Notes: generated by a model not told the origin, from the letters alone. DNA of 63,993 nt, filler included, from Porpidia crustulata (GCA_964255105.1; 9 parts of 9 records of this genome joined end to end with filler, not necessarily neighbours in it); one strand, 5' to 3'; shown: positions 2,284-47,216, numbered from the whole stretch's first letter. A program made the numbers and translations.

Positions 2284-3967
2284 ACGATCTGTATATATCG
2301 ACCTCACTTCCTTTGGTCTATTCTACCTCTTGGATTTAAGGAGGTCGGCTTCGCTGGTGCAAGGGTCGGTTAGGCGTTGGGGATTTGACGTGGCGGTGTA
2401 TAATAATAAGTAGGCATAGTTCTGGAAAGCTAACCGCGGTTGGCTATTTGAAGCTGATTATTCGGAAATGGGCGTATAAGTTGGGCTATGGTGTCGGAGT
2501 GGACCATCAATAAGGTCGCTCTTGCACGTCGTAGGGTCAGCAGAGTCATTTGGAAGTTCCTGTGTGATCGAATGGTACGATAATTGGAGAGAACGCTTGC
2601 AATACACGATGGTTCAAGGACTAAGTATCTCATTCCTCCACATTTGGCCTTCTTGCATATTGTCTTGGCATGACTATAGGCTGCCGCCTCGCTCGTGCAT
2701 ATGCTTCCACAGCCACCTGCGAGGTACCTTCTGTCCGTATCACACTTCCAATAGACATGAAGAACCTGGTCAAGAATCAGCCACCAAAGATTCGCTCACG
2801 GGATTGCTTCAGATCCACCGTACCCAAACGTCGCTCCAGATCCTAACATATACTGCCCCAGAGTCCTCATAATACCATTAGAACCAGCTCCATATCTCAT
2901 AATGTTGAAACCTCCTACACTCTTTTAGCAATATGGCTATAGCTTTAAGGTCCTGCTCCTAATATTTACCAAACATGAAGCCCATGATTAGACCAACGGC
3001 TAGTAATTGGACTTGAGCTTTGGCCAAACTTGGGAAAAGGGGGTGAGACTTACAGCCTCCCAACATCGCACCCATCTTCCCTATGCTATGTCAGCCAATA
3101 CCCTACGACCTAAACGATCCTGACTATCTTCCACACACATTTGTCAAAGGTGGATGGGCCTCGCATGCCCCCTCCACCTTGCGAGCTCGATGGCATTGGC
3201 GGCATGGTAACTTGTGAGGCGTCCCAACTTTGAATGGCAAGTGTATTGTGAGTTCACTTGCTATCGGCATCTGTAAACCGAATGTAAGCTGTTTTTGGCT
3301 GACTAAGCATTTGGTCACGTGTTTAGAGCTTTGATCACATCAAACTCTCCATGGTGTTTGATTGTGTAGGATTACCACACTCATTGAGATAGGGATAAAT
3401 CCTTGCAGCCCTCGGAAAAATTGTGCAATCCCAGTTTGCTTGTTGGCGTCTATGTGTGTGTAAACAGTAGACCTCACGTGCTTGTTCTGGGATTGTATTC
3501 GACTAAGGGCCGGCGTCTGTTTCGTGAAAGGAAAGAAACGACACCTTCTCACTACCCCTCGCCCTTGAACATAAATTTCATCCACGGCTATCGAAGACTC
3601 AAAAATTTCCTGGTTTCCTCATTGCCGGCGTCTACTGGGCTCATCACAATCGCACATATCTCTAGTAAAGGAGGTCACAAGAAGTCTCGAAAAAACCACA
3701 TTTTCGAGAGTGCGGTCGTGCGGCTCAGCACAGATACCTCTCGATATTTGAGTGCGCAACCGGGCCACTTCCTGATCATATTTTCGACGGTCTGGTTTCA
3801 TGAGATTGATTTCTAGCCTCGAATATTGCCCTGTCGCACGCGAGATACGCCACGGCACTGGTTTCAAGTGCGTGGGGATTCACCAGTGGGGATACTTGGG
3901 GGGTCAAGGGCGGTACATTAGCAATTTGGCCTATCGAGAAAGAACACAATAGGAGAAACTTGTGCAG

Positions 3968-6441
3968 ATGACGGCTGTAGCGTCTCCGTCGAGTTTCCAG
4001 CCTCTAGCCCGATGGAATTCTGGTAATGGTGGACAGGGAGGCTTAAATCCAATGAGTGCCGACGAAGTTACACGTATGTTCATGCCGCAGAAGAGTGTAC
4101 AACGGACAAACTCCTCCTCATCCGTCGCATCTTCGTCGTCGTCGTCTTCTACCTCGACGATACCTACAACTGCCCCACCAACAAATGGCGAGGCTTCGGC
4201 TACAAACGGTGACCAAGGAGGGTGGCCCGGAAGGAAAAAGCCTGTGCGAGGGCTCTGGCCTTCGTCAAAGGCTGAGCCAGTGTCCGGCATATCCAAAGCG
4301 CGACCGCAGCCACTTCCTACAGCAACCTCAGGTCAGTCCGCTGCGTCGACAATGTCAGCTATACATCAGCCGTCTCCCATCCTACCCTCACAGAACAGAC
4401 TTCAGACTCAACCACAACAGAACGGTGGACGGATAGAACCTTCAACAAACCAGACAGAGCCGCCTGCAGTTCTTGCCTTGCAGCCGCTTACTACCACGTT
4501 TGAAAGAAAACATATCACAGTACCATATTTCCCGGAGGTACTCAGGATAGGTCGACAGACAAATGCGAAAACAGTCCCTACAGCCATCAATGGTTATTTC
4601 GATTCTAAAGTACTTTCTAGACAGCATGCCGAGGTATGGGCGGATAGAAATGGTAAGATCTGGATTCGGGATGTGAAGTCATCGAACGGTACTTTCGTGA
4701 ACGGAGTTAGATTGTCACCCGAGAATCGGGATTCTGAGCCGCACGAATTACGAGAACATGACACATTGGAATTGGGCATCGATATCGTAAGCGAGGATCA
4801 GAAGAGCATCGTCCATCATAAAGTGTCCGCCAAAGTCGAACACGCTGGTATATATACGAACGGCACGAATGTACTGGACTTGAATTTTGGTGATATTGAT
4901 TCAAGTTCCGGAAATCCTATACCCATTGGTCAACAGGTCTCACAAGTCAGAGGTCGCGCTGGAAGCCAAGGCTCGATATCAAGCAATGGGCGAATGTCCG
5001 TTCCGGCGAGCATGGCAGGTAATCATTTGAACGGAATGGGCCCCCAGCGGCAGATGAACTTTTGGCTGAACCCAATCACTATTGAACAGGTTGTTAAGAA
5101 ACTTACTGTAAGTCGGGGCACAGATGCTGACAAATGTCCGTCTGCTAAAAATTCCTCCAGACCGAATTGAAACAGGCAAAGCAGCAGTCCCAAGACCTTC
5201 ACCGGACCGGCGATTTCTTCACAACATTATTGAACTTAGAAACAGGCGAAGAACCTCCAAAGCCATCAGACACTCATCCAGCAGATGATAGGAAACTTAA
5301 TGGAATATTGCCTGGAGCGCATCTCGATCCCGTATCGCCTTTCTCCCAACCACCGGCTCCACCACCTCAGCAGCCTCTCCCGGAAAAGCCCGACGCAGCC
5401 CGCTCAATCGCTTTTGACACAAAAGTGCAGACCTCTTTGAACAGAGTGGACACAGATAAGCCAAAGCCGGCCATGAATTCGCCGTCAAGGGTAGAGCCTC
5501 CAACAAGCCAGATTCTGTCCCTTGTCGAAGCTTTAACAACCGCGAAGAGAGAAATTGACTCCCAAGGCGACCGCGTCAAGCAGCTAGAGATTATGCTTAG
5601 TCGAGAGCGAAAGGCGCGAGAAGGAGCCGAGGAGCGCGCTCGTCGTCTGCTAGCCGGCTACACTCCTGAGTTTGACATACCTGAAAGTGAGTCAGTCGAA
5701 GGGGAAGCTTTGGATACGTTGACGCAACCGCAAATCACGGACGAGCACCGGCAATCCAATTGCAACATGAGAGACGTCAAGGACCAACCCAAAACATTAG
5801 CATCAACCTCAGCGGCACTGGAAACCCCAGATGAATTCCACCACGATACAGCTTCCGTCGATGCATCTACCACCCGTCTCCAAGAAAAGCTCGACCTGAT
5901 GATTCGAGAAATGGACGAGATGAAGATTGTCATGGAGAATTATAAAAGACGGGCTGAGACGGCGGAGGACGAACGAAAGGGCCTTGCGGAGATGGTACAG
6001 CAGATTCGGTCCAATGTTGCTGCCACAGCGAACGACCTCAGTGACGACAGCACCATTCTCGGAAGCAGCTCATCCCAATCCTCTGACGGCATCATTTCAT
6101 GGGGCTCCTCTTCCACTTATGCTGCTTCCGGTACTAGCTCCTCCTCACCCATCTCCCAGCAAAAGTCCAAACAACTCAACGGTCGAACAGTCACTGGCGT
6201 CCCATTATCGTCGGTAGCGCAAGCCGAGTATGACAACATGGCCGAGCTGGAACGAACTGTTTCTACTGCACTACAGGAAGCTAGCAAATCGCAGCGCTGG
6301 GGCCGCAATAGCCGGGGATGGAGTGGTAATGGCGAGAGTGCGATGATGCAGGGGGCACCGTATGCGAGTATGGTTGGGGTGGTGCTAATCGGAGTAGGGA
6401 TCATGACATGGTTGAACGGGTGGCAGAGGGGGGAGAGGTGA
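3968..6441 (+). CDS. VPS64: FHA-domain, coiled-coil, tail-anchored protein (Vps64/Far9/SLMAP-like, STRIPAK component)
   Basis: FHA motifs LRIGRQT, FDSKVLSRQHAEV and DVKSSNGTFVNG; coiled coils; C-terminal TM helix PYASMVGVVLIGVGIMTWLNGW; intron 5108-5160 (GTAAGT..CAG). Confidence 0.88.
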
Positions 6442-7074
6442 GTTGTTACGAGAGAGTGCGGAGGTTTTGAGGCGAAAGTAGGGAATGGAGTCGAAACGCA
6501 GCTGGAACAAAGCCCGAGGAGGCTGAATCAGTCTTCATGGAATAAATTAACACTCTCATTGCAGGCGTGCGGTTTTTCGTGGATAGGTGTGCATATTTGA
6601 AGGCGTTCCTTCTCAAGTATCAATTACCAAGTTGTACTTACGGCCGTGGCAACCGCTGGAATTTTGGGAAATGGGGATACAGCACAGCACAGGACCTTTA
6701 CGCATAAGGGTACTTCATTACGTTGTCTTTTTATCGCAGGGTTATTCTTATGAGAACCCTGCAAGTTTAGGATTTGTCTGGACGATGGGAGGGTGAGGGG
6801 CTGGAGATTGTATATATGGATGCACGAAGTGGCTTTTGGTCGGTGTAATGTACCGTTTGATTCTGTGATAGGAGTGCAATATGGGATGATGTTTGCCGCT
6901 AGGGGAGCGATGACTCTCAGTGGGGGTCCCGCTGAGATGAAAGCACCCCTGGGCAAGACTTTCGACATAGACGTTGCGACTGAAGGACCATTGACTCTGT
7001 CAGAAAAGTCGAATCAAAATCACCCAAAGCCATCCACATATCCCTCCTCTCCAAAACCCACCCCAACATCCCCC

Positions 7075-7174
7075 NNNNNNNNNNNNNNNNNNNNNNNNNN
7101 NNNNNNNNNNNNNNNNNNTTAATTAATTAANNNNNNNNNNNNNNNNNNNNNNNNNNNNNNNNNNNNNNNNNNNN
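7075..7174. other. Artificial contig spacer (N44-TTAATTAATTAA-N44); also at 14238, 21398, 28550, 35697, 42839, 49960 and 57075
   Basis: Identical 100-bp layout eight times; the 12-mer has stop codons in all six frames. Confidence 0.98.
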
Positions 7175-8456
7175 GTCATAGGGGGGGATAGTGGCGGCCG
7201 TACCTGGAGGATTGTTCTGTTCATCTAGGAGATAGTGGAGGATGCTACCGTCCGCGCCGCCGGTTGATAGCAGATTGGCGTGGATTGGGTGCCAGGTCAA
7301 AGTTGATATGTCCTTCTCGTTTCCCTTCAAAAGGCAAATGTCTCGCATCATCCTGAGGTCAAATACGCGCGCAGTTTGATCTCGTGCGCACGTTGCCAAG
7401 AGCTGGCCTTTGTTCGGCTCAAACAAAGTTTTGGATATGGTGTTTTTGTGACCGTGGAGCGTTGTCAAACATCGACCAGTCCGAGGATCCCAAAGCTTGA
7501 CTTGATGATCCTTGGAGCCAGAGACGATAAGACCTTTGGTCGGATGCCAGTCAACAGACTTCACTTCCCAGCCGTGCCCGGTGATGGTCGACTCGGCCTC
7601 TGCAACACCACCATGATGTATTGCTTCGCTATGGAAATCCCAAATTTTTAGCGTAGCATCATCACTGGCAGTCACAAATTTTGTATCATTTGGTGAGAAT
7701 GCGAGATCGCGGATGGGATCAGTATGTGCTTTTGATATATCTCTGACATTATTAAAGTTTGGCTGCCAGTACTTGACCACACCATCTTGATCCGCTGACA
7801 CAAGCCATTCCTCGTTGTGGGAATACTTTGCTGCTCGGATGGCAGAGTCATGCGCCTGTTGATTTTGTTATAAGCTTATATTTTTCTTCAAGGTGAATGC
7901 TACTAACTTGCATTATAGTTTCAAAATTGAATCCCATTCCATTCCAAAGCGTGAACTCTCCACTGCTCGATCCTGTCAGCAGACGGCGGCCTTCTGGAGT
8001 CCATTTGACTATATTGATTGGATGTTTGAGTTTATTCGTTGAAGAATGTAGATGCCGCGAAGGTATTGCATCAACAGCGTGTTGGATTTTGGCAGGAGGC
8101 GGTAGCATCTAATATGAGAAATCAGATTTCAATGATCCAAAGCTAAATCAGAAATACTCTGATATATCATACATCTACTATGTAACTGGCGCTTGGCCTC
8201 TCCATCTCCATTCGTATTCCCCCCTTGTACCGTGGCTGGCGATGTCGCATCCATTGCACCATTGACGAACCGTAATCAGTCACGGATCCTTTCAAAAATT
8301 CAGCCATTGTTCTAAGCATATGTCGTCGCGTCAAGCCAGTATCAAAAGCTGGTCTTCAGCTATGGCATACTACTAACTCCTACCGACAGTACGTCTGTAA
8401 CCTCCTCCATCATAACCTCCCCCTCCACCATATCCACCTTGGAAGTCACGATCCAT
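7175..8456 (-). CDS. PFS2: Polyadenylation factor subunit 2 (Pfs2/WDR33), WD40 protein, 3'-truncated at contig end
   Basis: ATG 8456 [15 protein letters not shown]...; [74 protein letters not shown]; several introns. Confidence 0.92.
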
Positions 8457-10003
8457 ATTGAATTCGAACAGACTACCCTACAATCATTGGTCTCGCAGAC
8501 AGTTCAATCGACACTTTCAATCTCATCATCCATAGATTTCCCCAAGAGAGTATCAAAGGTAAAGGTACAATTAGTAGGCACGTAGGCACGGAGGATAATC
8601 TCCAACCAAGACACTGTTGCCCTACCAACTGGATTAGTAAGCTCCCGCCGCTCTGCAAGAATCACAAAATAAACTAAATCTAGAAATACACAGCTCAAAC
8701 TCGCCATAAAATCTTGTTGTGACTTATTCTTCACCATGCTCCCTCAGAGGTAGTAATGGGCCACTCTGCAGTTATTGTTCAGTGTGGGTTTAACCCTACT
8801 TAGGGTGAGGTCTAGGCCACCTGTCTTACACATCACTAAAGTACGAGAGTACTATTGAAGGTTTTTCACGTATGCTCGGATTACATGATATCCTGAAGAA
8901 ATTCAATAGAGCATCCCTCGGTGATTTTTCATAAAATATTATTTGCGCAGTTCAAAACTTGTCGCAGCTTCCGAGTGTGCTATAATGGCGTTTCATACGC
9001 CGGTGCTTTGCATCTCAAACTAATCCAGGCATTATCTCACGATCTTGTATATGAGCGATTGAGCAGCTATGAGAAGGTGATACCTTATCTCATAGTGCAA
9101 ATGTTTTCTCTTTTATACCGACTCCCCATTCGTGGACAATCAAAACCTCGTTGTATACTTAACTGGCAATGACGAGAGATACTACAAAGTTTCTGTGTAT
9201 TTCTGCCCATGACTTGTCACCTATATGCAATGGGAGAGAAGGATCAGTAAAGGGGATGATTTGCGAACATCGACACAGACCGAGTGTCTCGACGAATCCA
9301 ATCGTACCCGAGCCATATGTACACCTTCAGAAAAGCAGCAGTACGCGGAGAAACTCATGCGTATCCACAACAATACCGTCCTGCTCTGCGGCGACAGGAT
9401 TAACAACGCGGCCGCTCTCGTTCAGGCCAACCTTGGCTTATCGAGAAAGATGCCATGCAGAATATCGCAGATGCCGTCCTCATCACATTTTCTTCATTCA
9501 ATAACCTCGCACTCATCGACCTGTCTCGACACTTTTGTCGTCACGTTGTCTTTAACTTCGCCTGAGCCGCTTCTGAAAACGTCTTTGCCATCCTACTTGC
9601 CATCGGCGCCTTTGTTAAGATGCAGTTGACTCCCGAATACACCAGGCTCGGGGAGGCAGTAAGCGTGATGCCCGTGATCCTGACCCGCTGCTGCTACGGC
9701 AAAGTCTGGCTTTTTCAACGGGTCCCAAGAACGCCATAGGAACTGTTAGACTCCAATATCAGATCCATCCATTAGTCTTCAAAACCACATAGAAACCCTT
9801 CCACGCGCTGGATTTCGCGGCCTCCATTATCAATTGCGAAAGATCTGCAATGCATCTTACCGCGATAGATAAATCAAAACCTTTCGCTACAACCCTTACA
9901 GAAATGGGGTGTGCAGCATGAATCCCTCGTGATTGGTTTATATTCACGCATGCACCCCCACATCCCGTTCATCTATTCCTCCGACTGGTGTGTGTTGTCC
10001 ATG

Positions 10004-10010
10004 TATATAA
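10004..10010 (+). promoter_or_regulatory. TATA box upstream of the metallothionein gene
   Basis: TATATAA about 145 bp upstream of ATG 10152, followed by a CT-rich leader and an A-rich start context. Confidence 0.6.
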
Positions 10011-10151
10011 GACCCCCACTCCCCGCACTGTTCTGCAATTAACTCATCTCCACCATATCATCTCCACCAACTCAAGGCCTTTGGCAAACGATTCCAAACC
10101 ATCAACTCAAACAATTCCCACCGATCTCTAGTCCAAACCCGAAAGAAAAAA

Positions 10152-10312
10152 ATGGGTCCTTGCTCCTGCTGCTCCCACTCTGGCGACTGTAACGGCTGCG
10201 GCTGCAGCACCTGTGGTGTATGAACTCTCTCTGTTTTTCTTCCCTCTTCTCCCTTCCGTCGTTATCAAAGGATGCAAAGATTAAACACCTCTGACCGATC
10301 CTGTAGCACTGA
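10152..10312 (+). CDS. Small fungal metallothionein, 23 aa (MGPCSCCSHSGDCNGCGCSTCGH), one intron
   Basis: Exon 10152-10217; intron 10218-10306 (GTATGA, CTGAC branch point, TAG); final CAC TGA. 7 Cys in CxC/CxxC spacing, 2 His, no aromatic residues; resembles Neurospora Cu-MT and Magnaporthe MMT1. Confidence 0.85.
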
Positions 10313-11862
10313 GTTTCGATGATTTCCATCTCAGGATGATCTCACGCGTGATGCATGGATGGCTGTGTGTTTGCTGATTGGGCTATGGTTAATGAGCATA
10401 TGCACGGGTCTGGCGTGTTGGATGGGGATATGATTGGGAGATGGAGTCACTCTTTTTGGGGATTTGGAGGTAGCACAATTGTGTTGGTGATGATTTGGGT
10501 GTGAGGGGTGCGTAGATACATATGTCATTATGATAGTCTCATGCGCCTACTGTGACAGCACTCTGCCACTGCGAGAAAGTTTCGGTGCCATTGAAATATG
10601 TTCGTGAACCCATGAATACTAATCTTTGCTTCTGGTGTAGACTTGAGCGCCTGCATACGGCAGTCGAAAGTGGTGTACTGGGGGCCAGTCGATGACAAAA
10701 AACAGTTTTCGTACGATTCGAGAAGTAGTTGAAGCCCATAGGAACTTCGAAACCCATTGTTGTCGCTGTCTCTCTCATCGAGGGTGAACAATAGGTCAAC
10801 CTCAGAATAGACTTTATTTCATATGGATGATGCGCTTCCATGAATAGTCAGCTTGAATGTGGGTTCCGATGTCACGCAGAGGAACCGAAAGACACTCGTT
10901 GTCCGTCGATGCTGAGCCAGTTCCTTAGTAAAGCACCACATGCACGAATAGCCTTAAGGGCGGGCTTCAGTGGCATCCTGCAGGGCTCTGACCTCTCATT
11001 TCGAGAAGCAGAGGCTCATCTTTGGAGTGCTTCAACTAACCGCTTGACAGCAAAGCCCAGGTAGCCTCCTCCACCCGGCAATGATACCTCAGGTGTTCGC
11101 TGAACTAAGTGCGAGTGGCGATGGCTTCGCAGAAAAGGAAGACAATCGTAAGTACAAATTTCTTTCAACAACCTTCCAATGCCATGCTCGGTCGATGGAG
11201 TTGAGATCCCAATCGCCTAACATCATGACAGGTAATGGTTAAGAATGTCCGTAAGCTCGGGATTCAGAAAATTGCGTTGCTTTAGTCAATTGACATGATA
11301 CTAGTTGCGACAATGGCGATCAACCTAGCTGCTTACTTTGGGTAAAAGACAATCCCAGGAGACAAATTCTCATTGATGAAGTCAATTCGGAGTTGTGTAT
11401 CAGAGAGTTTTCGAGCTAGAGTAGTAAATTCCCGAGACACGCTCAAGCGCGGTGCACCAACCCGTAGCGTATGTATTTGATCTGTTTAAAACGTTCGAAA
11501 GGACCATACAATACTCTAGTAAAGGAGTCCGATGTAATGTATTCTATTAAGCGCAAGCGAGGAAACTGACGTGCACAAACGTGTAAAATAAGGTTGCATA
11601 AGTGGCCTGTTAAGTCGCCCCAACACAACAGCCATCACCATGAGGAAAGCCCAACCATGATAGTGCAAATCTAACATTTTCTCTTCTCTTCCGTTCTTTC
11701 TTTTATTTGTTCCAGTTTTTTTCTACTATCCATTCAAGGCGATTGGATTCCCGGATTCTATGTCGCGCAGTTCTTAATACCCAATATGCTCATTGTAGTT
11801 ACTAACTTCCTGGACCGGTCTCTTTACTGCGATTGCTTGATTCGAATTTTCGGTCTAGTGTA

Positions 11863-13555: not shown

Positions 13556-14337
13556 ACGGATGACCCGCTAGAGTGATGTGAAGCTGAGTCTGGTTTTTGA
13601 GATGATTGGAGTTGAGGGGTGATGGTGTGGGGGGGGGGTTGATTGAAGGAGTGAATATCGGGTGTGTTCATAAATTTCAAATGAACGCCACCCACCCGCC
13701 TTTTCTCTGTCCCTGATCATTGCCTCTCACCAACGACCACACGCTGCAACTGCGTCCCAAGAACCAGCCCCAGTCTTCAACAGCGTACACGAACATACTT
13801 GACAGCAACATAACCGAGCGTGTACGCCATAGCGATGCGCAACGGATCCACGCAGCAGGGGGCAGCGGCACGGCAACTGTACGGCAAATCAGGCTACTGT
13901 GGTCTGTCCGTCGTAGGGTTTCGGTGGTTAGGGGGTTCTCGGAGAGTTTTGGAGATCGTTGGCGAGTTGGGTTTCCTACAAAAATCCTGCTGTTGAGGAC
14001 GCATTCCGCGAGAAGGGATTGAGATGAGTTCAGGGGTTTCCGGCTTTGTCGGCGTGGCGGATTATTCTTGCGAACAAATAGTCTCGAATTTCCAGTAAGA
14101 CGCCTGAGTATAATGAGTATCCCCCCTAAACGCCTCCCTCAAGTCCCCACCACCACCTATCCCACCCGCACCGCAACCACTTCACCCTCAAACCAAATCA
14201 ACATACCACTCTGATGCAGCGCATGAAACGGCTCCATNNNNNNNNNNNNNNNNNNNNNNNNNNNNNNNNNNNNNNNNNNNNTTAATTAATTAANNNNNNN
14301 NNNNNNNNNNNNNNNNNNNNNNNNNNNNNNNNNNNNN

Positions 14338-14410
14338 GATTTTTGGGAACAAGGGATTTTTGGGAACAAGGGATTTTTGGGAACAAGGGATTTTTGGGAA
14401 CAAGGGATTC
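14338..14410 (+). repeat. 17-bp minisatellite (GATTTTTGGGAACAAGG), about 4 copies, at contig start
   Basis: Four consecutive perfect units visible directly. Confidence 0.9.
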
Positions 14411-15199
14411 TTGGCGAATCGAAAGGTTTAACAATTACAGAGCTCGGGGAGTTATATGCGGTTATGGTGAACCTTCTGTCACCTTATTCTGCGTTATTAA
14501 GCTATTATCTGATTCTGTGTTCCCGTTTGCATTATCATCATCATCAAAATTTGTGCTGCTTTCACTCGTTGGTTGCCGTTCATCTTAGGCTGAATACTAA
14601 ATATAAGTAGACCACTCAACGCCGTCACATAAGCGCCAAGAAAGACCTAAAATCGGGCACCCGTCTTGTCTTCATCCCCGTTGCCGTTTTTGCCGCTCTC
14701 ACCTGGCTACGTTCCCTCGGTTCGAGATTGAATTTCAAGGGTTCCTTGATATCAACCTTGAGACTGATATGGGAATTGTTGGCTGAACATACAAAATTTT
14801 GTTGTTGGACAATCATGTGAACGTTAATTGAAATTAAGAGTAGCCCTATTGCGGGTAGGCATTTACACTAGTAGCGCGCTAACACCAATCTATCAACATA
14901 TTTACCGCTTAAGACTATCACTCATCTATTACAACCTGTCCTTTCTAAACCTTGCGCCATGGCTGCCTACAACTTCTTGCTACCCCGCAGCCTCGCTGAC
15001 ATCAAAAGAACCCTTTCTTCGAGCTGCATTAGTGCACAACGTTCTATTTGCTTCTGTCCGAAACGATTATACTCGGGCAATTACTAAGAGCAGCCTGCAT
15101 GGCGATTTCACACAACAGGTGATGTCGTTCGTTCCCTACTTTGAAAACAGAGCGCATAGCTGATCTGTTTCGTTATTGCAGTGCTCTCATCTCTACTCC

Positions 15200-15990
15200 C
15201 TTCAGGATCCTCGTTTGGCCCAATAGAAAAACTATTCTGCACTCATACCTCATCATTCGAAACCCCTTGATGTCCTTGTCAATAGAAACATGACAGATGC
15301 GAAGGAGAGATGTGCTCTGTTGCAAGACGTCGACAAGCGCACGTTTGTTAGATTCAGTCAATACGCATATACCGAAGACTACATTGCTGCGGATCCAGAC
15401 ATTCTGTTTGATTCCTTCACGGTTACCTTTACGCATCCTGTTCCGAACGAGACTCCTGTAGATATTGATGATGAAGAAGCACTCTCTCCTCCCCCTTCAG
15501 CCCCCGACTACGCGCAGCCGGAGCCAGAGCTAGAGCCAACGCGGGACTGGCCAATGTCAGAGAATGATAAACAGAAATGGCGAAACCTGGAGAAAAATGG
15601 GAGATGAAGTAGAAGACATTGCCCCTGAAGCTGAAGAGCCGGTTGCAGTCACTCCACAGTCAAAGAAGTCCGAACTATGGGACAATTTCAAGAGCAAAGC
15701 ATGTACCACCTCCAACCCTGCTTTTCCACCCTGTGGAAAATGCGAATTATGCGAGAACTACATTGAGGTTTTTCTCTGTCATACCAAGCCTTATGTCTTC
15801 GCCAACCGGTATAATGTTGGCTCTCTAAGAGAGATTTGTCTCCATAAACTTCAACGGACTCTGGCCGAGTTCATTTTGGACGATAAACGAGCCAAGGATA
15901 TTATCGATTTACCGCGGTACAGTTACTCAAAAACTACTGGCTGTCAATAGTCTATTGATGACTTAAGACTACTAGTCGATGGTGCTTTAC
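15200..15990 (+). pseudogene. BTB/POZ-domain protein, disrupted
   Basis: HSKPLDVLVNRNMTDAKERCALLQDVDKRTFVRFSQYAYTEDY and YIEVFLCHTKPYVFANRYNVGSLREICLHKLQRTL lie in different frames (shift near 15590); stops at the 5' end. Confidence 0.7.
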
Positions 15991-15991
15991 G

Positions 15992-17641
15992 TCAAATAGC
16001 CAAAACACTCTTTCCTCCGTCAGAAGTCAATCGGTGTCGAACACGAACTTTGAGATATGAAATGCCTAATTTTCCGAGCCTCCATCTGGTCATCTCATCT
16101 TGATCAGCAACATTCTCAACATCAAGAACGGCCGAAGGGGCAAAAAGCAAGGCCTCTCCTGCATTCAGATTGACGATCTGAACGAACAATTGCTTGAGCA
16201 TATCGCTTTCACCCCTTGTCGATGTATCCATTGAGGCTGCTGCAAGGTGGCTTTTTAAGGCCTTCATCCAAGCCGGAGAAGTGAACCGATGGACTAAGGT
16301 GAATGAACAGACATCGAGGAGCTTCGGAGATATGGTGTGTTCCTGGGTGGCGATGATCACACGACAAGCAAGGTGCCTCTGAAGGCGAACAGTTGTAATC
16401 AACGATTCCGTCAGCTTTTGCGCTGCCGCGGACTCCCTCAAAAACTTAGTCCCGTAATGAACATTAGTGACTAATTTCAGACGCGGATTGGCAACGTCAC
16501 CTACCTTGTGTGCCTCATCAAGTGCAACAACTCGTCCGGTGTCCATCTTCTGCTCCAGAAAAACACCCAAGCAAATATCAAATAACGAACATGCTGAGTC
16601 GGCATCCACAAAAGGACAGCTAAGGTCAACAATAATGAGCTTTCCCGGGGAGGAAGTCCAGTCATTTCCTTTGGTGCTCTGTTTGGTCCTCAACTTTGGG
16701 GCTGCGATAAAGCTTTCGAGCAGATCAAGTCGGAGATTAAGTGGCCCAAGTTGCGCGGGAGTGAGATCTGTTGCCAAAATTCGCCTTTTGAAGTCGTGAT
16801 AATCTATCCCGGGTTTTGGGTTGGGCTCCCGAGCCATTTCTCGCAGTATTTTATATACTACTTGTATGTATAGAGGAACCTGTCCCTCTGTGCTATCAAC
16901 AGCCATAAGTGTCATCAGCCTTTCGATGTTCAGATACCTCTGCTGGAGTAAGAGAGGTTCCACTCTGGGTCCATCTCCTACAAGCCCCGGGATATTTTGA
17001 TAGAGTGACCTCATTCTAGCAAAATTACTGGGCGATACCAACACAGTTACTCTTATTCCGGATGAGCAAAGGTAAGCTGCCTCACAAGCATGACCGCCGA
17101 CAGCCGACGTGAACGAATCATAGTGAAATACAAGTCCCGTGAGCGGATTTGGGAGTTGCGTCGCACACACATTTGGAATTAGACAATTCTCCAACATGCA
17201 CGACAAAGAATGACTTTTGCCACTTCCTTGGGACCCACAGATAAACACTGACCATGGCGCCCCAACATTTAGGAAAATGCGAGGATCTTGCACGGCCTGA
17301 CAGACTGACTCTCCATTGCGCGTTGCCGAGCCAGAGGTCTGTTCGGAGGAAAAGTCTATTCGCCCGGCGAGCAAACCATATTGAGGAAAGGGATCGACCT
17401 GGCCGGGTACTCGTTTTGTGATTTGGTGTTTTACAGACATTGAGAAAAGCGGCGTTGTGCGGATCTCTTTAAGGTCGGAAGTGTCGTGGCTGATATTCTC
17501 TGACGATTTCAAAAGAGCCAAGTGATGCTCAAGGAATGGATCAGAGCCAGGATCATATTCATCCTGACCTAAAGTAAGGTCTTGCAATACGCTTGGGTCG
17601 AATATGTGTGAGGATCTGACAATCCCTGCTGATGAAGACAT
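15992..17641 (-). CDS. HerA/FtsK-like P-loop NTPase (fungal AAA-like family)
   Basis: Walker A ICGSQGSGKSHS, Walker B VVALDEAHK, RLQRH and IIATQE motifs; probable in-frame 60-bp intron at 16445-16504. Confidence 0.82.
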   Translation of the reverse strand: MSSSAGIVRSSHIFDPSVLQDLTLGQDEYDPGSDPFLEHHLALLKSSENISHDTSDLKEIRTTPLFSMSVKHQITKRVPGQVDPFPQYGLLAGRIDFSSEQTSGSATRNGESVCQAVQDPRIFLNVGAPWSVFICGSQGSGKSHSLSCMLENCLIPNVCATQLPNPLTGLVFHYDSFTSAVGGHACEAAYLCSSGIRVTVLVSPSNFARMRSLYQNIPGLVGDGPRVEPLLLQQRYLNIERLMTLMAVDSTEGQVPLYIQVVYKILREMAREPNPKPGIDYHDFKRRILATDLTPAQLGPLNLRLDLLESFIAAPKLRTKQSTKGNDWTSSPGKLIIVDLSCPFVDADSACSLFDICLGVFLEQKMDTGRVVALDEAHKVGDVANPRLKLVTNVHYGTKFLRESAAAQKLTESLITTVRLQRHLACRVIIATQEHTISPKLLDVCSFTLVHRFTSPAWMKALKSHLAAASMDTSTRGESDMLKQLFVQIVNLNAGEALLFAPSAVLDVENVADQDEMTRWRLGKLGISYLKVRVRHRLTSDGGKSVLAI

Positions 17642-18653
17642 GTTGTTATCTGATAGAAAACGTCGGATTAATGTCGAGGCTCGCAGGGGCGTAGGAAGGC
17701 AGATGATTCAAGAGCAATCCAAGTGCAAAGGACCTCAAGGGAGATTGATGCTGAAGTAGTGAGGATTGCCCTTGCAGTAGGAATACGGGCTGTAACGAAA
17801 TCTAAGTCTCAGACAACAAAGCCAGAAGGAGGAAGAAACAAGGTAGGATCTCTTCATAACAAGTTTAATCTTGGCTGTATCTTTGACCTTGCAGGCTTGG
17901 AGTAATAAGGCAGGGCTCTGAATGCTACGAAAGATCGGACATGGTTGAGCAAGCAGTTTAAAAAATGAGCGTTTGCGCCGATGCCGTGTAACCTAGGACC
18001 GCACTATCATATCACAGAGTGGATCTATCACGAAGAAAGCGACGTTGTGGATCAGCGCCAATATCTTTTCATGATGGTCTATGTGAGCACTTGGGCACCC
18101 TTGTTGCGTGGCTTGTCTCCTTCGACGTGTTTTATTGAACAATGCAGCTCTCAAATTTGTTACTGCGTTAACAGAATCTCTCTTCTCAAAATTAACGATC
18201 AGGCGAGAAATGGGGATCGATCGATACGATTCGAGGCGTGGGATTCTTGCGTTGTCTCTTTTCATCTCGAAGCATCGGAACGCAGTCATGGATAAACAGC
18301 CGAACGAATGCAATAAAGCGTCGCGTTTGATGATGCATATCGTTGGAAAGATGCCAGCTGTCCTCACCGAGCCTAACAAAAGCGTTTATGGTTGACAATT
18401 GAACGGTCGCACAAAGTGCCTATCCAATAACAAGGCAAGGTGCCCGCAATGCGTCTCGCATACAGAAACCCACAATTCAGAACGCCTAAAGATTCGTTCA
18501 AAATCTTCAGTCATGTACGCTTGACTCATTGTTATCTGTTCCCACCTCTGAGCTGTGGACATACATGTATTGGGTCAATCCCGAAACCATCCTCAATCTG
18601 CACATGAGATCTATCGAGCGATCCACCTAGTATCAGGAGCCAGTCCCGCAATC

Positions 18654-20974
18654 ATGGAAGGCGATGGCTCGCATTTTGGGCTCGCGAGTCCGGATCTTCT
18701 TGAAAAGATTGACAGGCTTTTTGCATGCAACATTGGAGAGCATGTCGACCTTCCGCAGCTAGTTGTCGTTGGCGATCAGTCAAGTGGCAAAAGCTCTGTT
18801 CTGGAGGCTTTAACAAAACTTCCGTTCCCTCGCGAGAGCGGTCTTTGCACAAGGTTCGCGACACAGATCACATTCCGCCGGGCCCAGGAGACACGGTGTC
18901 TGTGATCCCGGCGCAAAATACGAGTGAGGAACACAAAACAGTCTGTCGCGCTTGGGCCGTGGGCGGTCTTCGATCATTAGATGCTGGTTCGTTTGTCAAC
19001 ATAATGACCCAAGTACGTCCACTTTTCACGATTTCGTTGCGATAGTAACAGGATCAGGTCAACACCGTGATGGGCCTTGTGCCGGACGAGTCCGGGTCGA
19101 AACGCACATTCTCCAACGATGTCCTACGTCTCGAGATCTCTGGCCCTAAGGAAGACCATTTGAGCGTGATCGATGTCCCTGGTATCTTTAAGAGAACCAC
19201 TTCTGGGGTGACGACCAAATCAGACATGGAAATGGTTGAGCGCATGGTTCACAATTACATGAAGAACCCCCGTTCTGTGATGCTAACCGTTGTGCCGGCG
19301 AACGTCGATATCGCAACCCAAGAGATACTTGAGAAGGCGGAAGAAGTTGATCCGGATGGGATGAGAACGTTGGGAGTCTTGACAAAGCCGGATATAGTGG
19401 ACAAAGGCGCGGAAAAGAACGTAATGGATTTAGTTGAAGAGAGAAAGCACCAGCTCAAATTCGGCTGGCATATTCTCCGCAACCCCAGTCAAGCAGAGCT
19501 GAACAAACCTGTCGCTGACCCTTATGCCACTGAAAGAAGCTTCTTCGCAGAGGAATCTCCATGGAACAGCTTGGATAAAGAAAGAGTGGGCATTGACTCG
19601 TTCAGGGACCGCCTGTAAGAGATTCTCGCCAATCATATTCGCCGCGAGTTCCCAAAGGTAACGTCATCGATCAATTTGATGAAGTCGGATAATCATATAC
19701 ACTGTACAGGTGAAATCCGAGATCACCAAGAAGTTAAAGTTATGTCAGCAGAATTTGCAGGCTCTCGGGGTGAAGCGTCAAACATCTGCTGAACAGAGTC
19801 GATATTTAACGGAGATTGCTATGGAATTTCAGAAGCTATCCACAGAAGCGTTGTTGTCCAACTACGGACGTACCGACGTGTTCGACAATAACCCAAAGCT
19901 TCGACTCGCAACCGCTGTGGTCAATCGCAGCAATCTCATGTCAGAAGTCATAGCAACAAAGGGGCATACATTTCATTTCGAGTCCAGCGATGGAAAGAAC
20001 GGTTCTCATGAACATCGTCAAGACTTCCTTGATGAAAGTCTTGAAGCCATGAACATCAGCGCCATAAATCCCGACAATCATGACCCTGAAGGAACAATTG
20101 AGGTCCGGCACGTTCAAGATCATTCAGAGCTTGAAGGTCTGGTGCATGTGCCAAAAACGTTATCCGAACCACAGGGCGGAAGCATTCATGTCTGGCTGAA
20201 AGAGGTTTATCGCGGCGCGCGGGGCTTTGAACTGGGAACTCTCAACTCCTCGCTCCTGGCGGTGACCATGAAGCGCCAGTCGATGAAGTGGAAGAGCCTG
20301 GCACTAGGATATATTGCTGACATCGTGACGATGGCTCACGTTTTCGTCATTGATCTCCTGCGTGCGGTCTGTCCTGTCGAACGAATTCGAATTGGGATAA
20401 TGTCTCTGCTCACGGATCACTTGGTGGAGAAGTACAAGTCGGCCATATCCCACGTTAATTTTCTTTTGGAGATAGAGCTCGAGGGAACTCCGGCGACGCT
20501 TAACCACTACTTCAACGACAATCTAGAAAAGTGGTAAGGAAAGCTCCATTACGTTGGGAAGGATAATCAGCTTACGGGGGATGATAGTCGTCAACGACGG
20601 ATGCACGCCAGGATGGAAAGCAAAAGTTTTTCCGATGATCAGTATGGAGAAGTGGTCAGGCTCAACGACATCGTACAAAATCATCCAATGAGCAACGCTG
20701 ATCACGCCATACAAGATCTCCACGATATCTTACACTCATATTACAAAGTTGCCCGTAAACGATTCGTTGACTCCCTTCGCATGCAAGCGGCTGATTATTA
20801 CTTGACCACTGGACCAAGTACGCCGCTGAATTGTTTTCCCCAGCTTTCGTGGCTGGGATGACACCGATACAGTTGGAAGAAGTGGCTGGAGAGGACTTGA
20901 CGCTGAAGCGAAGGCGTATGCAGCTTAAAAAGGAGAACAAGGATTTGGAGGATGGTAAGAGGATTCTTAGCTAG
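18654..20974 (+). pseudogene. Mx-like dynamin-family GTPase with two frameshifts and a premature stop
   Basis: LPQLVVVGDQSSGKSSVLE, GLCTRFATQI, DVPG and TKPD motifs, stalk region and GED (YYKVARKRFVD). Frameshifts near 18895 and 20830; in-frame TAA at 19616-19618; three introns. Confidence 0.85.
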
Positions 20975-21497
20975 CTCGTATTTGACCAGGTTATGGAGAT
21001 CTTACAGAAACCTCGATCATGTATTCTCTGAGCCTAATGACGTTCTTATTACAACGCGATGGCGACAAAAAGTCGTTTATTCTTATTTGTGGGCCGCTGA
21101 GGAGCGTGACATGGCTCGTTCTTGGATTGAATCTCGGTTATGTACGAGTTGGCTTAAGAATAATTCAGACTGCATCACGTCCCAGCGATAGATCTTTCGG
21201 TATCTGACCCATCTCATTGTAGTCGAAGGGACATTGACCTGGACCTTTCAGGTAAAAGATCCCAAGTCACGTGATAGAATTTTTGCGCCATAAAAGATCG
21301 GGTCTTGACGCGTCAGGTCGTCCATAAACCCTGGTGTTCATGTTGTTGTTGTTATGTCAGGTTTATTGTCCTTATGCAAGCTAGGCTTATGAAAGACNNN
21401 NNNNNNNNNNNNNNNNNNNNNNNNNNNNNNNNNNNNNNNNNTTAATTAATTAANNNNNNNNNNNNNNNNNNNNNNNNNNNNNNNNNNNNNNNNNNNN

Positions 21498-28549: not shown

Positions 28550-29222
28550 NNNNNNNNNNNNNNNNNNNNNNNNNNNNNNNNNNNNNNNNNNNNTTAATTA
28601 ATTAANNNNNNNNNNNNNNNNNNNNNNNNNNNNNNNNNNNNNNNNNNNNGCTTTCTTGACTCTAGGAGCTGGACCTACAACATGTGAGGAGTGGGTGAGC
28701 TGTGGTTTGGGTCGGTGGGAGCTTTGAGGGCTTTGAAAGTGATATGTCGATCGTCTCGATTGGGTAAGGCGCCTACGGGTGGTTCCTGGCCTCTTTAGCC
28801 TTACGGTTATTGGTCCAAATCGTTCCACGCGAAGCTTCCATCGTTTCTAGTTCAACTTTGTCAAGGGACACAAAGGTCGAAGATGTTGTATGAAATGTAA
28901 TGCCGATACGTGGATGTTGCAATCTAAAGTTCACACGGAGGACAAACAGACCTACTTGCGGAGACAAAGATTGAAGACGTGTAGGCGAGACATCTACATC
29001 TCCATTTAGAAACAATGAGAAGGAGTCTGGGTATTCCAGATTACTTGTTTCGTGGTCTTTGCATATGAAATTCGAAATCTTTGGGAAGATTTTACTAGGG
29101 TTGCATGACCCACCGTGATGGAGTTGTCAGAGCGTTAGGCATTTCTCTTTGCTCAGCCTTAGGCCTTCAATCTGGATCGGATTCAAAATTAGAGACTCGA
29201 TAGCAGCTCTAGCATTTCACCA

Positions 29223-32581: not shown

Positions 32582-32591
32582 NNNNNNNNNN

Positions 32592-34995: not shown

Positions 34996-36596
34996 TTTGG
35001 AGCGTAAAGTTTCAAATGATGTAGATGCACAGATTTTGTCTTGAACTTGGTGGATGGAGTGAGACGAGTGAAGAGTGAGGAATGAAGCTGTTGATGAGGG
35101 ATCGAGCTGTGTTTATGAATGATTTCATTTTGTCGTTTGCTCCTTCTTTGTCGCTTTGAAATTGAGCTTTGCCGTCTGTTGTGTTGACTAGATTACCAAT
35201 GTGATGCTTCTCACTCGGAGCTGCCGGAGAATCCACTAAAACATTCGATTCCGATAGATTTTCAGCTGAGTAATCATGACGTCGATAAGAAATTCACTCC
35301 ACACATAATCGCGGCTCCACAAGTCATTGTTTTGAATTAATTCGATTTAATTCTATCAGTCAGTAAGTAAGTAAGTGAGGGAGAGTACTGTTATGTCATT
35401 ACTTAGTGAGTGAATCAGAGTATATTATATGTTATGTCCGTGGCACCATGGATCATTAAGTAATACCAGAAACATTCCAACATGTAACCAAAAGCGCTTT
35501 TCCACAATCTCATTTTCAGCCTTCGCGCGGCCGTTGTCCGGCCCGAACCGATTATCGTTTCCGCCTTTTCGTTTCCGCCTTTTAGAACCAAATCGGAGAT
35601 TCCGCATTCGTACTCCGGTTTCCCCTCTCGGTAAATAGCCGGTGCCCGCCATACACCAGCCAATTTAACGGCTACACCCCCGAATTAGCCAGCTACNNNN
35701 NNNNNNNNNNNNNNNNNNNNNNNNNNNNNNNNNNNNNNNNTTAATTAATTAANNNNNNNNNNNNNNNNNNNNNNNNNNNNNNNNNNNNNNNNNNNNACCC
35801 TAAATACCAGCCATCGTATTTCCACCGTCCACCCCCACCACCACCACCACCATGCGGCTTCAGGGTGCAAAGTTTTAATTGACGCACCGGTCACAGCTGA
35901 CACCTGCGTCGGTGGGCTTGTTTGCTTGCTTCCTTTCTTTACTCTTTGGCCTGCTGCTGGTCAAGTCGATGGGTCACAATTTCGATGCAAACACACCTCC
36001 GACGCAAACTAATGGCGCTGGCAGGGATCTTTTGACATATGTACCTATGAGGTCAGGAAAATGGGATAAGATTTAAGCATCTTTGTTCCGGACCGCCGTT
36101 ATATGTATGACGTGAACTTTATCTAAGCCCATGGAACGAAGGACATTATCATATTGTGAGAGGTGTTTAGTTGAGATGATTTGACAATATAATCAGGAAG
36201 AACGATCGCGAGAGCATCCCAAAAGCCGTTGTCGCATCTGATCACCTCATCTCCGCCACGTGGATCCTATCGTCACCTCCACCGCCGATCGGTGCCATCT
36301 AAATAGCTTTTTTTTAATTAATCGTAAAGTATTCGACGTCACTGCGGCTGACTCACTTTTTTGATGACTTTTGTTTCTGGTATTAGGTACACAGTAAATT
36401 ACTATCACAGGATGACAATGATTGGATCGAAGTTTCCATGTAATCAATAAGCTAAGCAGATGAGTCTTCAGCGCGCTGAACGACAATTTCCCATTTTTCC
36501 AAAACGTGTATGACATTTCCCCGTCTCCAGAAATTAGAGTTCCCTCGAAATTTCCATAATCCGCGCGCGGCGGCCTGTTCTGAGCGATCCTGGCCG

Positions 36597-42749: not shown

Positions 42750-42938
42750 TATGTTTCAGTCGGGTTGTTGTCTGTGGTGGTGGGGGTGGCCATGGACTAG
42801 GGAAGCGAAGCTGATGTTTCATTTGGGGGGGGGAGTAGNNNNNNNNNNNNNNNNNNNNNNNNNNNNNNNNNNNNNNNNNNNNTTAATTAATTAANNNNNN
42901 NNNNNNNNNNNNNNNNNNNNNNNNNNNNNNNNNNNNNN

Positions 42939-45855: not shown

Positions 45856-47216
45856 TCATCGCCATCGACCAACACGCTCCCGCTCATACTCATCTTCATT
45901 GTACCCCTGCCATTCATATCTCATACTCGCCGCATCCCGGCACTCCGACTCCGAGCCCGCCACGCGCGTCCCCGTGAATTTGCACTCGCCCATGGGCCGC
46001 AGCGATCCAGCTATGCGACCGCCGCCTAAGAACGCAATCTCGCCCACACAATTTTTGCCGAAGCTCATCTCCCCCTCACTGGTTTCCCTCCCGGCCCAGC
46101 GGCAGGGTAGTGGCGTCGCGGAGGCGCGGGATGGGCGTTTGGGAAGGAGAAGGATGCCTTGGAAGATTCCGAAGNNNNNNNNNNTACTTGGGGGATTTCG
46201 AGGCAGAGGGTTAGGGAGAGGTCAGTGTGGCCCCATTCGGCGGTGATGTATGGGCAGTCGATTTCGTAGGAGCCATTGATTAGACCGAGGGTCGGTTTAC
46301 TGGGGAAGGGGTTTTCTTTTTTGATGAGGGGTTCTTGCTTTGGGACTTTTTCCTTTTTTATCGCTGGCGCTCTCTTTTCTACGGGCTCTTTTTTCACTGC
46401 TGGCTCTTTCTTCGCTGCTGGCTCTCTCTTTATTGCCGTTGGTTTTTTTGCTGCAGGTTCCTTTTTGGTCGCAGATTTCTTCGTGTTAGGAGGTTCCTCG
46501 GGTATGATCGTATCTCCTATGCTTATAATGCGCTTGGTCACTGGATCCCTCCTTATCGCTCGTGCTCTGAGTTTTGGATCGTGCTTGGCTAATTCCGAGA
46601 GTTTTTTGCTCCTTGCTGTCTGAATTGGCCACTTCTTGTCGGCTCCATCAGCTGGTTCTGTCCTTGCCTTCTTTACGGGCGACGGTCGCTCCGATTCCAT
46701 TGTTTGGAGTTGATTCAGGTTGCCCGGCGCTGCAAATTGCCCACCAGCAAATGCACCGTAATTATTGATGGTGACATTGACATTGTTTGCTTCGGGCTGC
46801 TTCCGCTTCTTACTAGTTGTGGCTTCCTTTGGTTGTGCAGCCATCTGGGATTTGTATTGAGCTCTGGCCTTCTTTTCTGCTGCATTGAACTCTTTCTTCA
46901 GAGAATCTTCCAATCTCGTCACCGTCGCGGGAACAGCTAAACTCGAGGAATTGACTGCCTCTAACAATCGCATCTTTGCTCTTGCTTTATCTTTCGACGG
47001 TGGTAGCCCATAGTGGATCAATTGCGCCTCGTACCAATGGCCCACCGGATCTTTGCTTATTTGAGTAGTTGCCTTTGACTTCTTCAAGTCTGGGCGTAGG
47101 ATTGCTGTGATTTCGGAGATGGAAGCACGTTTGTGTCGATTCAGGCCGCCGACTTCGACATATAGATCCCCATTATAGTGAAAGCCATCCTTAGAGATCG
47201 GAGGGGCGAAGCTCAT
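45856..47216 (-). CDS. Conserved fungal hypothetical protein with a Lys/Ala/Pro-rich linker (10-N gap at 46175-46184)
   Basis: MSFAPP..NRHKRAS; KDPVGHWYEAQLIHYGLPPSKDKARAKMRL; KKEPAA repeats; C-terminus EWQGYNEDEYERERVGRWR*. Confidence 0.75.

Follow-up and report, generated by a model that had tools for sequence, protein, structure and literature searches.

We analyzed a stretch of 63,993 bases from Porpidia crustulata (GCA_964255105.1; hereafter the window) in which a gene for a HerA-like ATPase stands head-to-head with a gene for an Mx-like dynamin. The pairing of these two gene families recurs in unrelated lichen-type fungi, across three separate lineages of the ATPase, involves two subfamilies of the dynamin, and within the clade of the window has been reshaped by the replacement of one Mx-like gene by another behind the same presumed promoter. 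The copy in the window belongs to a multi-copy block, and its dynamin is a pseudogene; a first-pass annotation made from the sequence alone, which had taken the two genes of the window for a possible co-acting module, is therefore not borne out for this copy. We favor, with moderate confidence, a reading in which a fungal gene pair with jointly acting products recurs and the locus of the window is one of its decayed copies.

The two genes of the window

The ATPase is encoded by an open frame of 549 codons on the minus strand (15992–17641). The 20 residues encoded by an in-frame, stop-free segment directly after the Walker B motif are missing in 29 of 31 aligned homologs, and we therefore read this segment as an intron (table 1); P0001, a 91% identical homolog from a prokaryote-style gene caller, retains the same insert, and P0016 carries a different one in the same place. 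Walker A, Walker B, and the Arg and Gln motifs after Walker B that together make up the P-loop core are all present, as CGSQGSGKS (residues 135–143), ALDEAH (373–378), RLQRH (419–423), and ATQ (431–433), and most of these residues are invariant among 32 aligned sequences, which share 80 invariant columns overall. Codon 435 (16337–16339) encodes His, where at least 90% of the 32 sequences, and likewise P0001, have Pro (IATQEPT).

Pfam returned nothing for the ATPase beyond two weak P-loop matches, even at an E-value of 10, and the single sequence found no match among solved structures. A profile of 32 family members matches the HerA chains of anti-phage complexes (8xau, 3.4e-5; 8yho, 1.1e-4; 8j4u, 3.9e-4), and the homolog P0117 has a precomputed match to PF01935. 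In the PADLOC library of defense proteins, the ATPase matches mad8 (PDLC04140, E 1.7e-9), with residues 132–503 aligned to profile positions 30–290 of 314, and its neighbors in a protein atlas are fungal clusters first (one of them from a basidiomycete), then bacterial and archaeal DUF87/HerA clusters. The AlphaFold model (mean predicted local distance difference test, pLDDT, 74.1; predicted template modeling score 0.78) is closest to Sulfolobus HerA (4d2i_B; Z 21.4 over 317 residues, root-mean-square deviation 3.6), followed by DndH-C, VirB4, SIR2/HerA, DUF4297-HerA, and HerA-NurA chains at Z 17–21; DndH-C, VirB4, and the HerA of SIR2/HerA lie within 1 Z of the best match. The best 27 structural matches are all HerA, DndH-C, VirB4, or TdpAB, with TrwB at about 16 and FtsK at about 15, and Foldseek E-values range from 2.6e-11 to 1e-8. 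All of these alignments begin at about residue 66 of the model, corresponding to residues of about 112–147 in the HerA chains, that is, after the N-terminal barrel of HerA; the N-terminus of the fungal protein is variable, and model residues 1–52 and 99–116 mostly have a pLDDT below 50. Judged by its motifs and predicted fold, with weaker matches from sequence profiles, the ATPase belongs in the FtsK-HerA superfamily, on its HerA/VirB4 branch; it may be a HerA in the strict sense, although the matches start past the N-terminal HAS-barrel. The first-pass description of a P-loop NTPase with HerA/FtsK/VirB4-type motifs agrees with these results, both for the motifs it named, every one of which is present and mostly invariant, and for the family, which the fold match, the profile matches, mad8, and the atlas neighbors all support.

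The ATPase family is conserved across filamentous fungi, yet has no Pfam model. Scoring of 8,000 candidates gave 1,645 matches, and a profile search of 1.84 billion proteins gave 3,316 cluster representatives at E ≤ 1e-3; the listing of the latter search contains strong family members without names and is silent on prokaryotic relatives. By the names of the sources, the family spans the Lecanoromycetes, Eurotiomycetes, Dothideomycetes, Leotiomycetes, and Sordariomycetes, and the nearest look-alike cluster outside the sampled filamentous ascomycetes comes from the Basidiomycota. Clustered by lineage, the neighbors of the gene include a GST gene (downstream) in six clusters, and DFP, SUR7/PalI, and response regulator genes in three clusters each; two mis-fused database models, P0048 with GST domains and P0015 with DFP, agree with this. 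Given these ordinary syntenic surroundings in most lineages, the family behaves as if inherited vertically, with an Mx-like gene only occasionally added beside it. Our literature search, with subscription journals outside its coverage, turned up no paper that deals with a HerA-like family of fungi or with a fungal ATPase–dynamin pair.

The open reading frames (ORFs) of the dynamin exons match Dynamin_N (1.3e-12 and 2.4e-17) and Dynamin_M (2.7e-07) in Pfam, with no PH, proline-rich, or other domain among them. The closest annotated homolog, P0121 from Psora testacea, aligns by tblastn over residues 1–726 in four pieces, in shifted frames and with no room for introns. These frame breaks are accounted for by three lesions, two frameshifts and one nonsense codon, that emerge from comparison with the metagenome locus L018 (table 1). 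This locus carries the dynamin ortholog, with 93% nucleotide identity over 17799–21112, and without three ordinary introns the dynamin of L018 is intact, with 725 residues and 76% identity to P0121. A splice model of the window dynamin with additional introns was set aside: those introns are false and merely bridged the two frameshifts. In the sequencing run that contains 99% of the stretch, a Logan contig has no differences over 14400–20858, lesions included; as this independent assembly is identical across the lesions, they are not errors of the present assembly. Both the 7 bp and the extra A that the window lacks are present in runs X2, X3, and X6 (two of the three are labeled rock metagenome), and in run X1 the extra A occurs only on a second contig, from another copy.

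The ratio of nonsynonymous to synonymous substitution rates (dN/dS) of the dynamin against L018 is 0.17 over 720 codons, indicating that the gene was under constraint until recently and died recently. For the ATPase, dN/dS is 0.27–0.30 against L001, L002, and L004 and 0.17 against L006, values that indicate that the copy in the window is still under purifying selection. Mx1 and Mx2 are the best solved matches for both dynamin subfamilies considered below: P0121, as stand-in for the subfamily of the window, scores 8.5e-45 with Mx1 and nearly as well with Vps1 (8e-43), and P0155, from the other subfamily, scores 4.2e-37 with Mx1 and 2.4e-25 with the next family. With a GTPase domain, a middle domain, and a C-terminal helix, these dynamins fit the fungal MxF proteins, which the accessible portion of Langley et al. 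2025 (PMC11789081) describes as two old fungal clades with 0–5 copies per genome and rapid gain and loss, all MxF genes being lost in the yeasts and smuts listed there; an assignment to MxF1 or MxF2 would be tentative. Of the first-pass call of an Mx-like dynamin, the family assignment thus stands and the functional gene does not.

Recurrence of the pairing and exchange of the dynamin

To survey the pairing, metagenome contigs were scanned with the family alignment, and the best 80 loci of 211 confirmed relatives were all searched with the dynamin exons of the window and with other genes. Those with an ATPase coverage of 70% or more, 73 loci, group into 41 lineages at 85% amino-acid identity. 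The upstream flank reaches 3 kb or more in 22 lineages, and 16 extend about 10 kb to either side. Three of the 22 (and three of the 16) have a dynamin no more than 2 kb from the ATPase: the clade of the window (the window, L018, L004, L005, L008, and L039), L034, which is the same as L035, and L071. The first-pass statement that only one instance was visible is hereby superseded, and several of the arrangements are seen in more than one assembly (L034/L035; L004, L005, L008, and L039).

The three linked lineages do not form one clade in the ATPase tree (177 rows, with 24 rows of less than 70% coverage left out): the clade of the window stands apart, L034 falls beside Teloschistales-type sequences, and L071 among Lecanorales-type sequences, next to L070 and L076. 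A tree of the dynamin GTPase region (29 of 34 listed homologs and 10 of 11 locus regions; rows of less than 60% coverage left out) separates two subfamilies, which are 39–44% identical in the GTPase domain. One holds the dynamins of the window, L018, and L071 together with P0121 and its relatives; the other holds those of L004, L005, L008, and L039 and three dynamins of L034 (dynA, dynB, and dynC). The nearest pairings therefore mix different ATPase clades with different dynamin subfamilies.

Intact pairs are found at L071 and, with dynC, at L034: both ATPases are intact, and the dynamins are intact as far as they could be aligned. L071 is a core-type locus, with a DFP neighbor in common with L049, L064, and L076, and its dynamin lies 0.9–1 kb upstream of the ATPase. 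At L034 (positions 1–21733, same as L035), three Mx-like dynamins and a fragment of a fourth surround the ATPase, and the cluster also contains a fungal-type protein kinase (PF17667), an NB-ARC gene 5.4 kb from the ATPase, and DUF6601; this gene content is suggestive of an immune-type island in the genome of a lichen-type fungus. The dynC protein belongs to a widely conserved group, which some sources name "related to interferon-induced GTP-binding protein Mx".

Fungal genomes measure about 30–40 Mb. Combining this general figure with 0–5 MxF copies per genome, as given in the accessible portion of PMC11789081, and assuming random placement, we arrive at a rough chance level of about 0.03 of the 22 lineages with a dynamin within 2 kb, and of about 0.3 even with 50 copies. 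The three lineages observed lie far above this level, and a recurrent but evolutionarily labile pairing of the ATPase with Mx-like dynamins is likely to be real.

Close copies of the locus indicate how the pairing changes. A block of about 4 kb (window positions of about 14593–18652), comprising a BTB-like gene, the ATPase, and the whole intergenic region, is found at 86–92% nucleotide identity in other loci and recurs in L001/L004, L002/L003, L005/L039, L008, and L022. The first-pass description of a divergent layout across about 1 kb holds: the start codons, at 17641 and 18654, lie head-to-head with 1,012 bp between them. This intergenic region is itself conserved at 86–92% nucleotide identity in L002–L005, L008, and L039, and presumably serves as a shared bidirectional promoter. 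In L004 and L005, homology to the window stops at 18652, directly before the ATG of the dynamin, and a dynamin of the other subfamily starts there; L008 retains a remnant of the window-type dynamin, its first 16 codons, which lies about 150 nucleotides upstream of the start of the other type. The end of homology at the ATG and the remnant in L008 indicate that one Mx-like gene was replaced by another behind the same promoter. As a separate observation on the intergenic region, two extra contigs in the probable source run match parts of 18144–18611, namely 18223–18273 (6 differences) and 18410–18551 (16 differences), and then diverge, so that genome has sequence from the presumed shared promoter at other sites as well.

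The flanks of the close copies differ. L008 has DUF7492 and a kinase fragment on one side, and SET and uridine kinase/UPRTase genes on the other. In L005, a gene for an OTT_1508-type deaminase (3034–4632, plus strand; E 6.7e-19) lies about 1.8 kb beyond the dynamin; this deaminase family is tied to antiviral responses in Neurospora. The flank of L004 contains fragments of a DDE_3 transposase (E 7.1e-6) and of DUF3723 (E 3.2e-7), located at 6437–7729 and 1–2.4 kb from the BTB-like gene, as well as a calcium-channel-type gene. Together with the presence of two types within single assemblies, these differing flanks make the copies look like dispersed paralogs.

Most of these copies show decay, with one partner broken. 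An intact ATPase remains in the window, L001, L002, and L004; the gene is broken by a stop at codon 254 in L003, by three stops in L005, and by a 1-nucleotide insertion in L008, and it is cut after residue 199 in L018. The dynamin of L004 has a Trp-to-stop change outside any intron, that of L008 looks intact in the aligned parts, and L005/L039 carry stop codons in the ATPase, the dynamin, or both. Among the private substitutions of the L005 ATPase (10001–11647), C>T and G>A account for 43 of 47, and nearly all of these affect the leading C of a CpC dinucleotide (GpG on the opposite strand); in L004, 10 C>T changes of this kind lie on one strand. The pattern in L005 resembles repeat-induced point mutation (RIP), in a context that is not the usual CpA.

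An unnamed ORF family without a Pfam match accompanies several loci (L002:1080–1745, L003:819–1484, L005:1352–1981, L006:7397–8044, L007:7395–8042, and L034:2416–3231), 1.7–2 kb upstream of the ATPase in L002/L003 and L006/L007 and at about 7–8 kb in L005 and L034. We set it aside as a partner of the pair: with 86% protein identity between L006 and L034 despite their separate ATPase clades, it is probably a repeat or part of a mobile element.

Proposed joint action and its alternatives

Under the reading that we favor, a joint function would lie behind the recurrence. The ATPase would be a ring-type, NTP-driven motor of the HerA/VirB4 branch, an ordinary vertically inherited gene in most lineages, and its partner an MxF-type dynamin, with the two genes brought to within 1–2 kb of each other in several lineages. 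In three of the four nearest pairings, the genes are head-to-head over one intergenic region and would be switched on together. By analogy with animal Mx, the Mx-like protein might assemble on a target such as a viral or otherwise foreign nucleoprotein or a membrane complex, and by analogy with bacterial HerA and its partner effectors, the HerA-like motor might add ATP-driven translocation or disassembly. In the organism of the window, the dynamin is dead and the ATPase is kept, so the ATPase would also have a job independent of that dynamin.

Several observations weigh against such a joint function. The orientation is not fixed: pairs are head-to-head in the clade of the window and for dynB of L034, in tandem in L071, and tail-to-tail for dynC of L034. 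No dynamin lies in the flank of 19 of the 22 lineages (13 of the 16 with about 10 kb on both sides), and among these unlinked lineages are L006/L007, which form the sister closest to the clade of the window, and two that are close to L071, namely L070 and L076. Even within the clade of the window, L002 and L003 have no dynamin within 3.2–3.5 kb upstream. Among the matches listed, seven NCBI genomes that occur in both the ATPase and the dynamin lists (Xylographa soralifera, X. opegraphella, X. trunciseda, Trapelia coarctata, Lecanoromycetidae sp. Uapishka_2, Blastenia crenularia, and Sclerophora amabilis) have locus tags that are far apart and in no case neighboring, in a comparison of the best 120 of 1,645, 34, and the best 120 of 3,413 matches. 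Both genes are intact in none of the five types of the window clade in which both are visible, and this speaks against the pair being under strong selection there. Finally, the assumption of random placement may fail if both families favor the same variable, repeat-rich compartments. The first-pass proposal of a two-gene unit is partly supported: adjacency exceeds the rough chance level (three of 22 lineages against 0.03–0.3 expected), orientation varies, and most lineages are unlinked.

The main rival explanation, which we regard as less likely but quite possible, is that the two genes are coincidental neighbors in variable regions: a core ATPase with a role of its own, fast-turnover Mx-like dynamins, and a recurrence that stems from the duplication of one segment and a shared preference for repeat-rich regions. 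It would sit well with the ordinary synteny and the lack of a dynamin at most ATPase loci, with the varied flanks of the window-clade copies (transposase and DUF3723, OTT_1508 deaminase, kinase fragments, and the repeated unnamed family), with the RIP-like changes that make up 43 of 47 substitutions in one copy, with the independent decay of the partners, and with purifying selection on the window ATPase after the death of its dynamin. It has difficulty with the spread of the pairing over three separate ATPase clades and two dynamin subfamilies, with L071, where a core-type locus with its DFP neighbor nevertheless has a dynamin 0.9–1 kb upstream, with the exchange of the dynamin at the same promoter, and with the excess over the rough chance level.

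That the BTB-like gene, the ATPase, and the dynamin hitch-hike as a block of mobile or segmentally duplicating cargo, for example of a Starship-type giant transposon, is an unlikely and minor alternative. The block occurs at 86–92% nucleotide identity in at least four flanking contexts, with two types each in some assemblies, and the RIP-like mutation of L005 implies duplication within a genome. The DDE_3 and DUF3723 fragments near the block in L004 hint at a mobile-element context, DUF3723 being a Starship accessory family, and the contig of the window ends within a few hundred bases of the block on both sides, as repeats often do. No DUF3435 captain, terminal repeats, or target-site duplication turned up, in the course of work that included no systematic search for them. 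L034 and L071 lack the block, having no BTB-like gene and belonging to different ATPase clades, so mobile cargo would account for the window-clade copies and not for the independent pairings elsewhere.

An allorecognition (het-like) locus, with the two dynamin forms as ancient alleles under balancing selection, is very improbable: the abrupt change at the ATG from a flank of about 90% identity to coding sequence that is 39–44% identical in the GTPase domain does recall idiomorphs, and the L034 cluster does hold an NB-ARC gene and a fungal-type kinase, but the two forms have different surroundings and can be present together in one assembly, as paralogs rather than alleles would, the ORFs scanned on the contig contain no HET, HeLo, NLR, patatin, or gasdermin-type domain, most copies are decaying, and our literature search yielded nothing on dynamins as fungal incompatibility determinants.

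The proposed joint action of motor and dynamin can be compared with systems of prokaryotes. HerA-NurA (DNA end resection), SIR2-HerA (Nezha), and DUF4297-HerA share the ATPase fold, with Walker A and B and the Arg and Gln motifs after Walker B, and these systems likewise set a motor gene beside a second protein that would give specificity. The fungal gene differs in being eukaryotic and intron-bearing and in having a dynamin as its neighbor; no adjacent nuclease or NADase effector (NurA, SIR2, DUF4297, MAD7) is present on the contig piece, and most fungal lineages have no fixed neighboring partner. The structural matches start only past the N-terminal barrel of HerA (chain residue of about 114), and the N-terminus of the fungal protein is variable and of low confidence. 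Mad8 of the bacterial MADS system is the best match of the ATPase in the defense library (E 1.7e-9), and none of the other seven MADS genes is present, so we take this match to reflect a shared ATPase class and not a shared system; the accessible portion of PMC13662399 terms MAD7-MAD8 an ATPase-nuclease module. Besides the match of the ATPase to mad8, the scan of the defense library gave only weak P-loop matches to the first exon of the dynamin, the best being to LeoA, a bacterial dynamin-type defense gene (E 4.6e-5, P-loop only).

On the dynamin side, the likeness to animal Mx and to fungal MxF1/MxF2 (PMC11789081, in its accessible portion) consists of the dynamin GTPase and stalk, the lack of a detected PH domain, and Mx1/Mx2 as best solved matches; as described there for MxF, we see two old subfamilies and rapid gain and loss. 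The distinction from other dynamins is narrow for the subfamily of the window, which scores Vps1 (8e-43) nearly as high as Mx1 (8.5e-45). The accessible portion of Langley et al. 2025, PNAS (PMC11789081), contains nothing on genes neighboring fungal MxF and reports no antiviral activity of fungal MxF.

A further step, which we consider rather doubtful, would take the pairing as the trace of a fungal two-component immune-type module, in which a HerA-family motor and Mx-like dynamins cooperate in trans in most species and are repeatedly brought under one bidirectional promoter by selection for co-regulation and co-inheritance. Neurospora and Aspergillus, for instance, have both families in trans. 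Such a module would parallel, in eukaryotes, the bacterial defense of the type "HerA plus effector" and would provide the first functional partner for fungal Mx proteins.

To our knowledge, the recently recognized Mx-like dynamins of fungi have no known function or partners. Were joint action true, the pairing would offer a testable entry into cell-autonomous antiviral or stress defense in fungi, a possible deep parallel with bacterial HerA-based anti-phage systems, and a first functional handle on the ATPase family. Were the two genes coincidental neighbors, the record would still be corrected, in that the locus of the window is a half-dead copy on a 7-kb contig and no working module.

The contig piece and its features

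The window consists of joined contigs of about 7.06 kb each, separated about every 7.15 kb by spacers (table 1); the piece sizes fall slowly along it (7074, 7063, 7060, 7052, and so on), and two more runs of 10 N each lie at 32582–32591 and 46175–46184. The genes beyond the spacers (MBOAT, Ase1/MAP65, CSN5, and other housekeeping genes) sit on other contigs and are therefore not true neighbors of the pair, and a reading of the locus as a core chromosomal region, with MBOAT, Ase1, and CSN5 as neighbors, loses its basis through the N spacers. As the pair is confined to one piece of 7,060 bp, the wider genomic context of the locus cannot be read.

Table 1. Positions in the window of the ATPase–dynamin locus, its lesions, and the surrounding features
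Feature	Position	Strand	Details
ATPase exon 1, codons 1–379	16505–17641	-	Variable N-terminus, Walker A, Walker B ending DEAHK
ATPase intron	16445–16504	-	In-frame, 60 nt, stop-free; GTAGGT...CTAAT...AG, directly after ALDEAHK
ATPase exon 2, including stop codon	15992–16444	-	RLQRH, IATQE, VHRF, C-terminal strands
Intergenic region	17642–18653		1,012 bp, presumed bidirectional promoter
Mx-like dynamin pseudogene	18654–20974	+	Exons 18654–19012, 19058–19657, 19710–20533, 20588–20974
Dynamin introns	19013–19057, 19658–19709, 20534–20587	+	From alignment to L018 and its intact model
Lesion 1	18892–18893	+	7 bp missing, frameshift; L018 has 7 additional bases
Lesion 2	19616–19618	+	TAA for CAA, premature stop in RLQEIL; comparison with L018
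Lesion 3	20828–20829	+	1 bp missing, frameshift just before C-terminal helix; comparison with L018
BTB-like gene	14924–15950	+	Several exons, convergent with ATPase; ORFs 15227–15607, 15534–15950
17-nt tandem repeat GATTTTTGGGAACAAGG	14338–14421 (end approximate)	+	4 exact copies and 1 degenerate, at very start of contig piece; read from sequence
Contig piece bearing the pair	14338–21397		7,060 bp, flanked by spacers 14238–14337 and 21398–21497
Spacers	7075–7174, 14238–14337, 21398–21497, 28550–28649, 35697–35796, 42839–42938, 49960–50059, 57075–57174		Paired 44-N runs, 12-nt linker

Pfam and ORF scans of the piece found no genes besides the ATPase other than the BTB-like gene and the dynamin. 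The start given for the BTB-like gene marks the onset of nucleotide homology, its start codon being unverified. By tblastn, this gene adjoins the ATPase in L001–L005, L008, and L022, at 65–82% identity in most pieces, and stands beside it in L075 at 47%; the homolog in L003 has a weak BTB match (E 0.0012).

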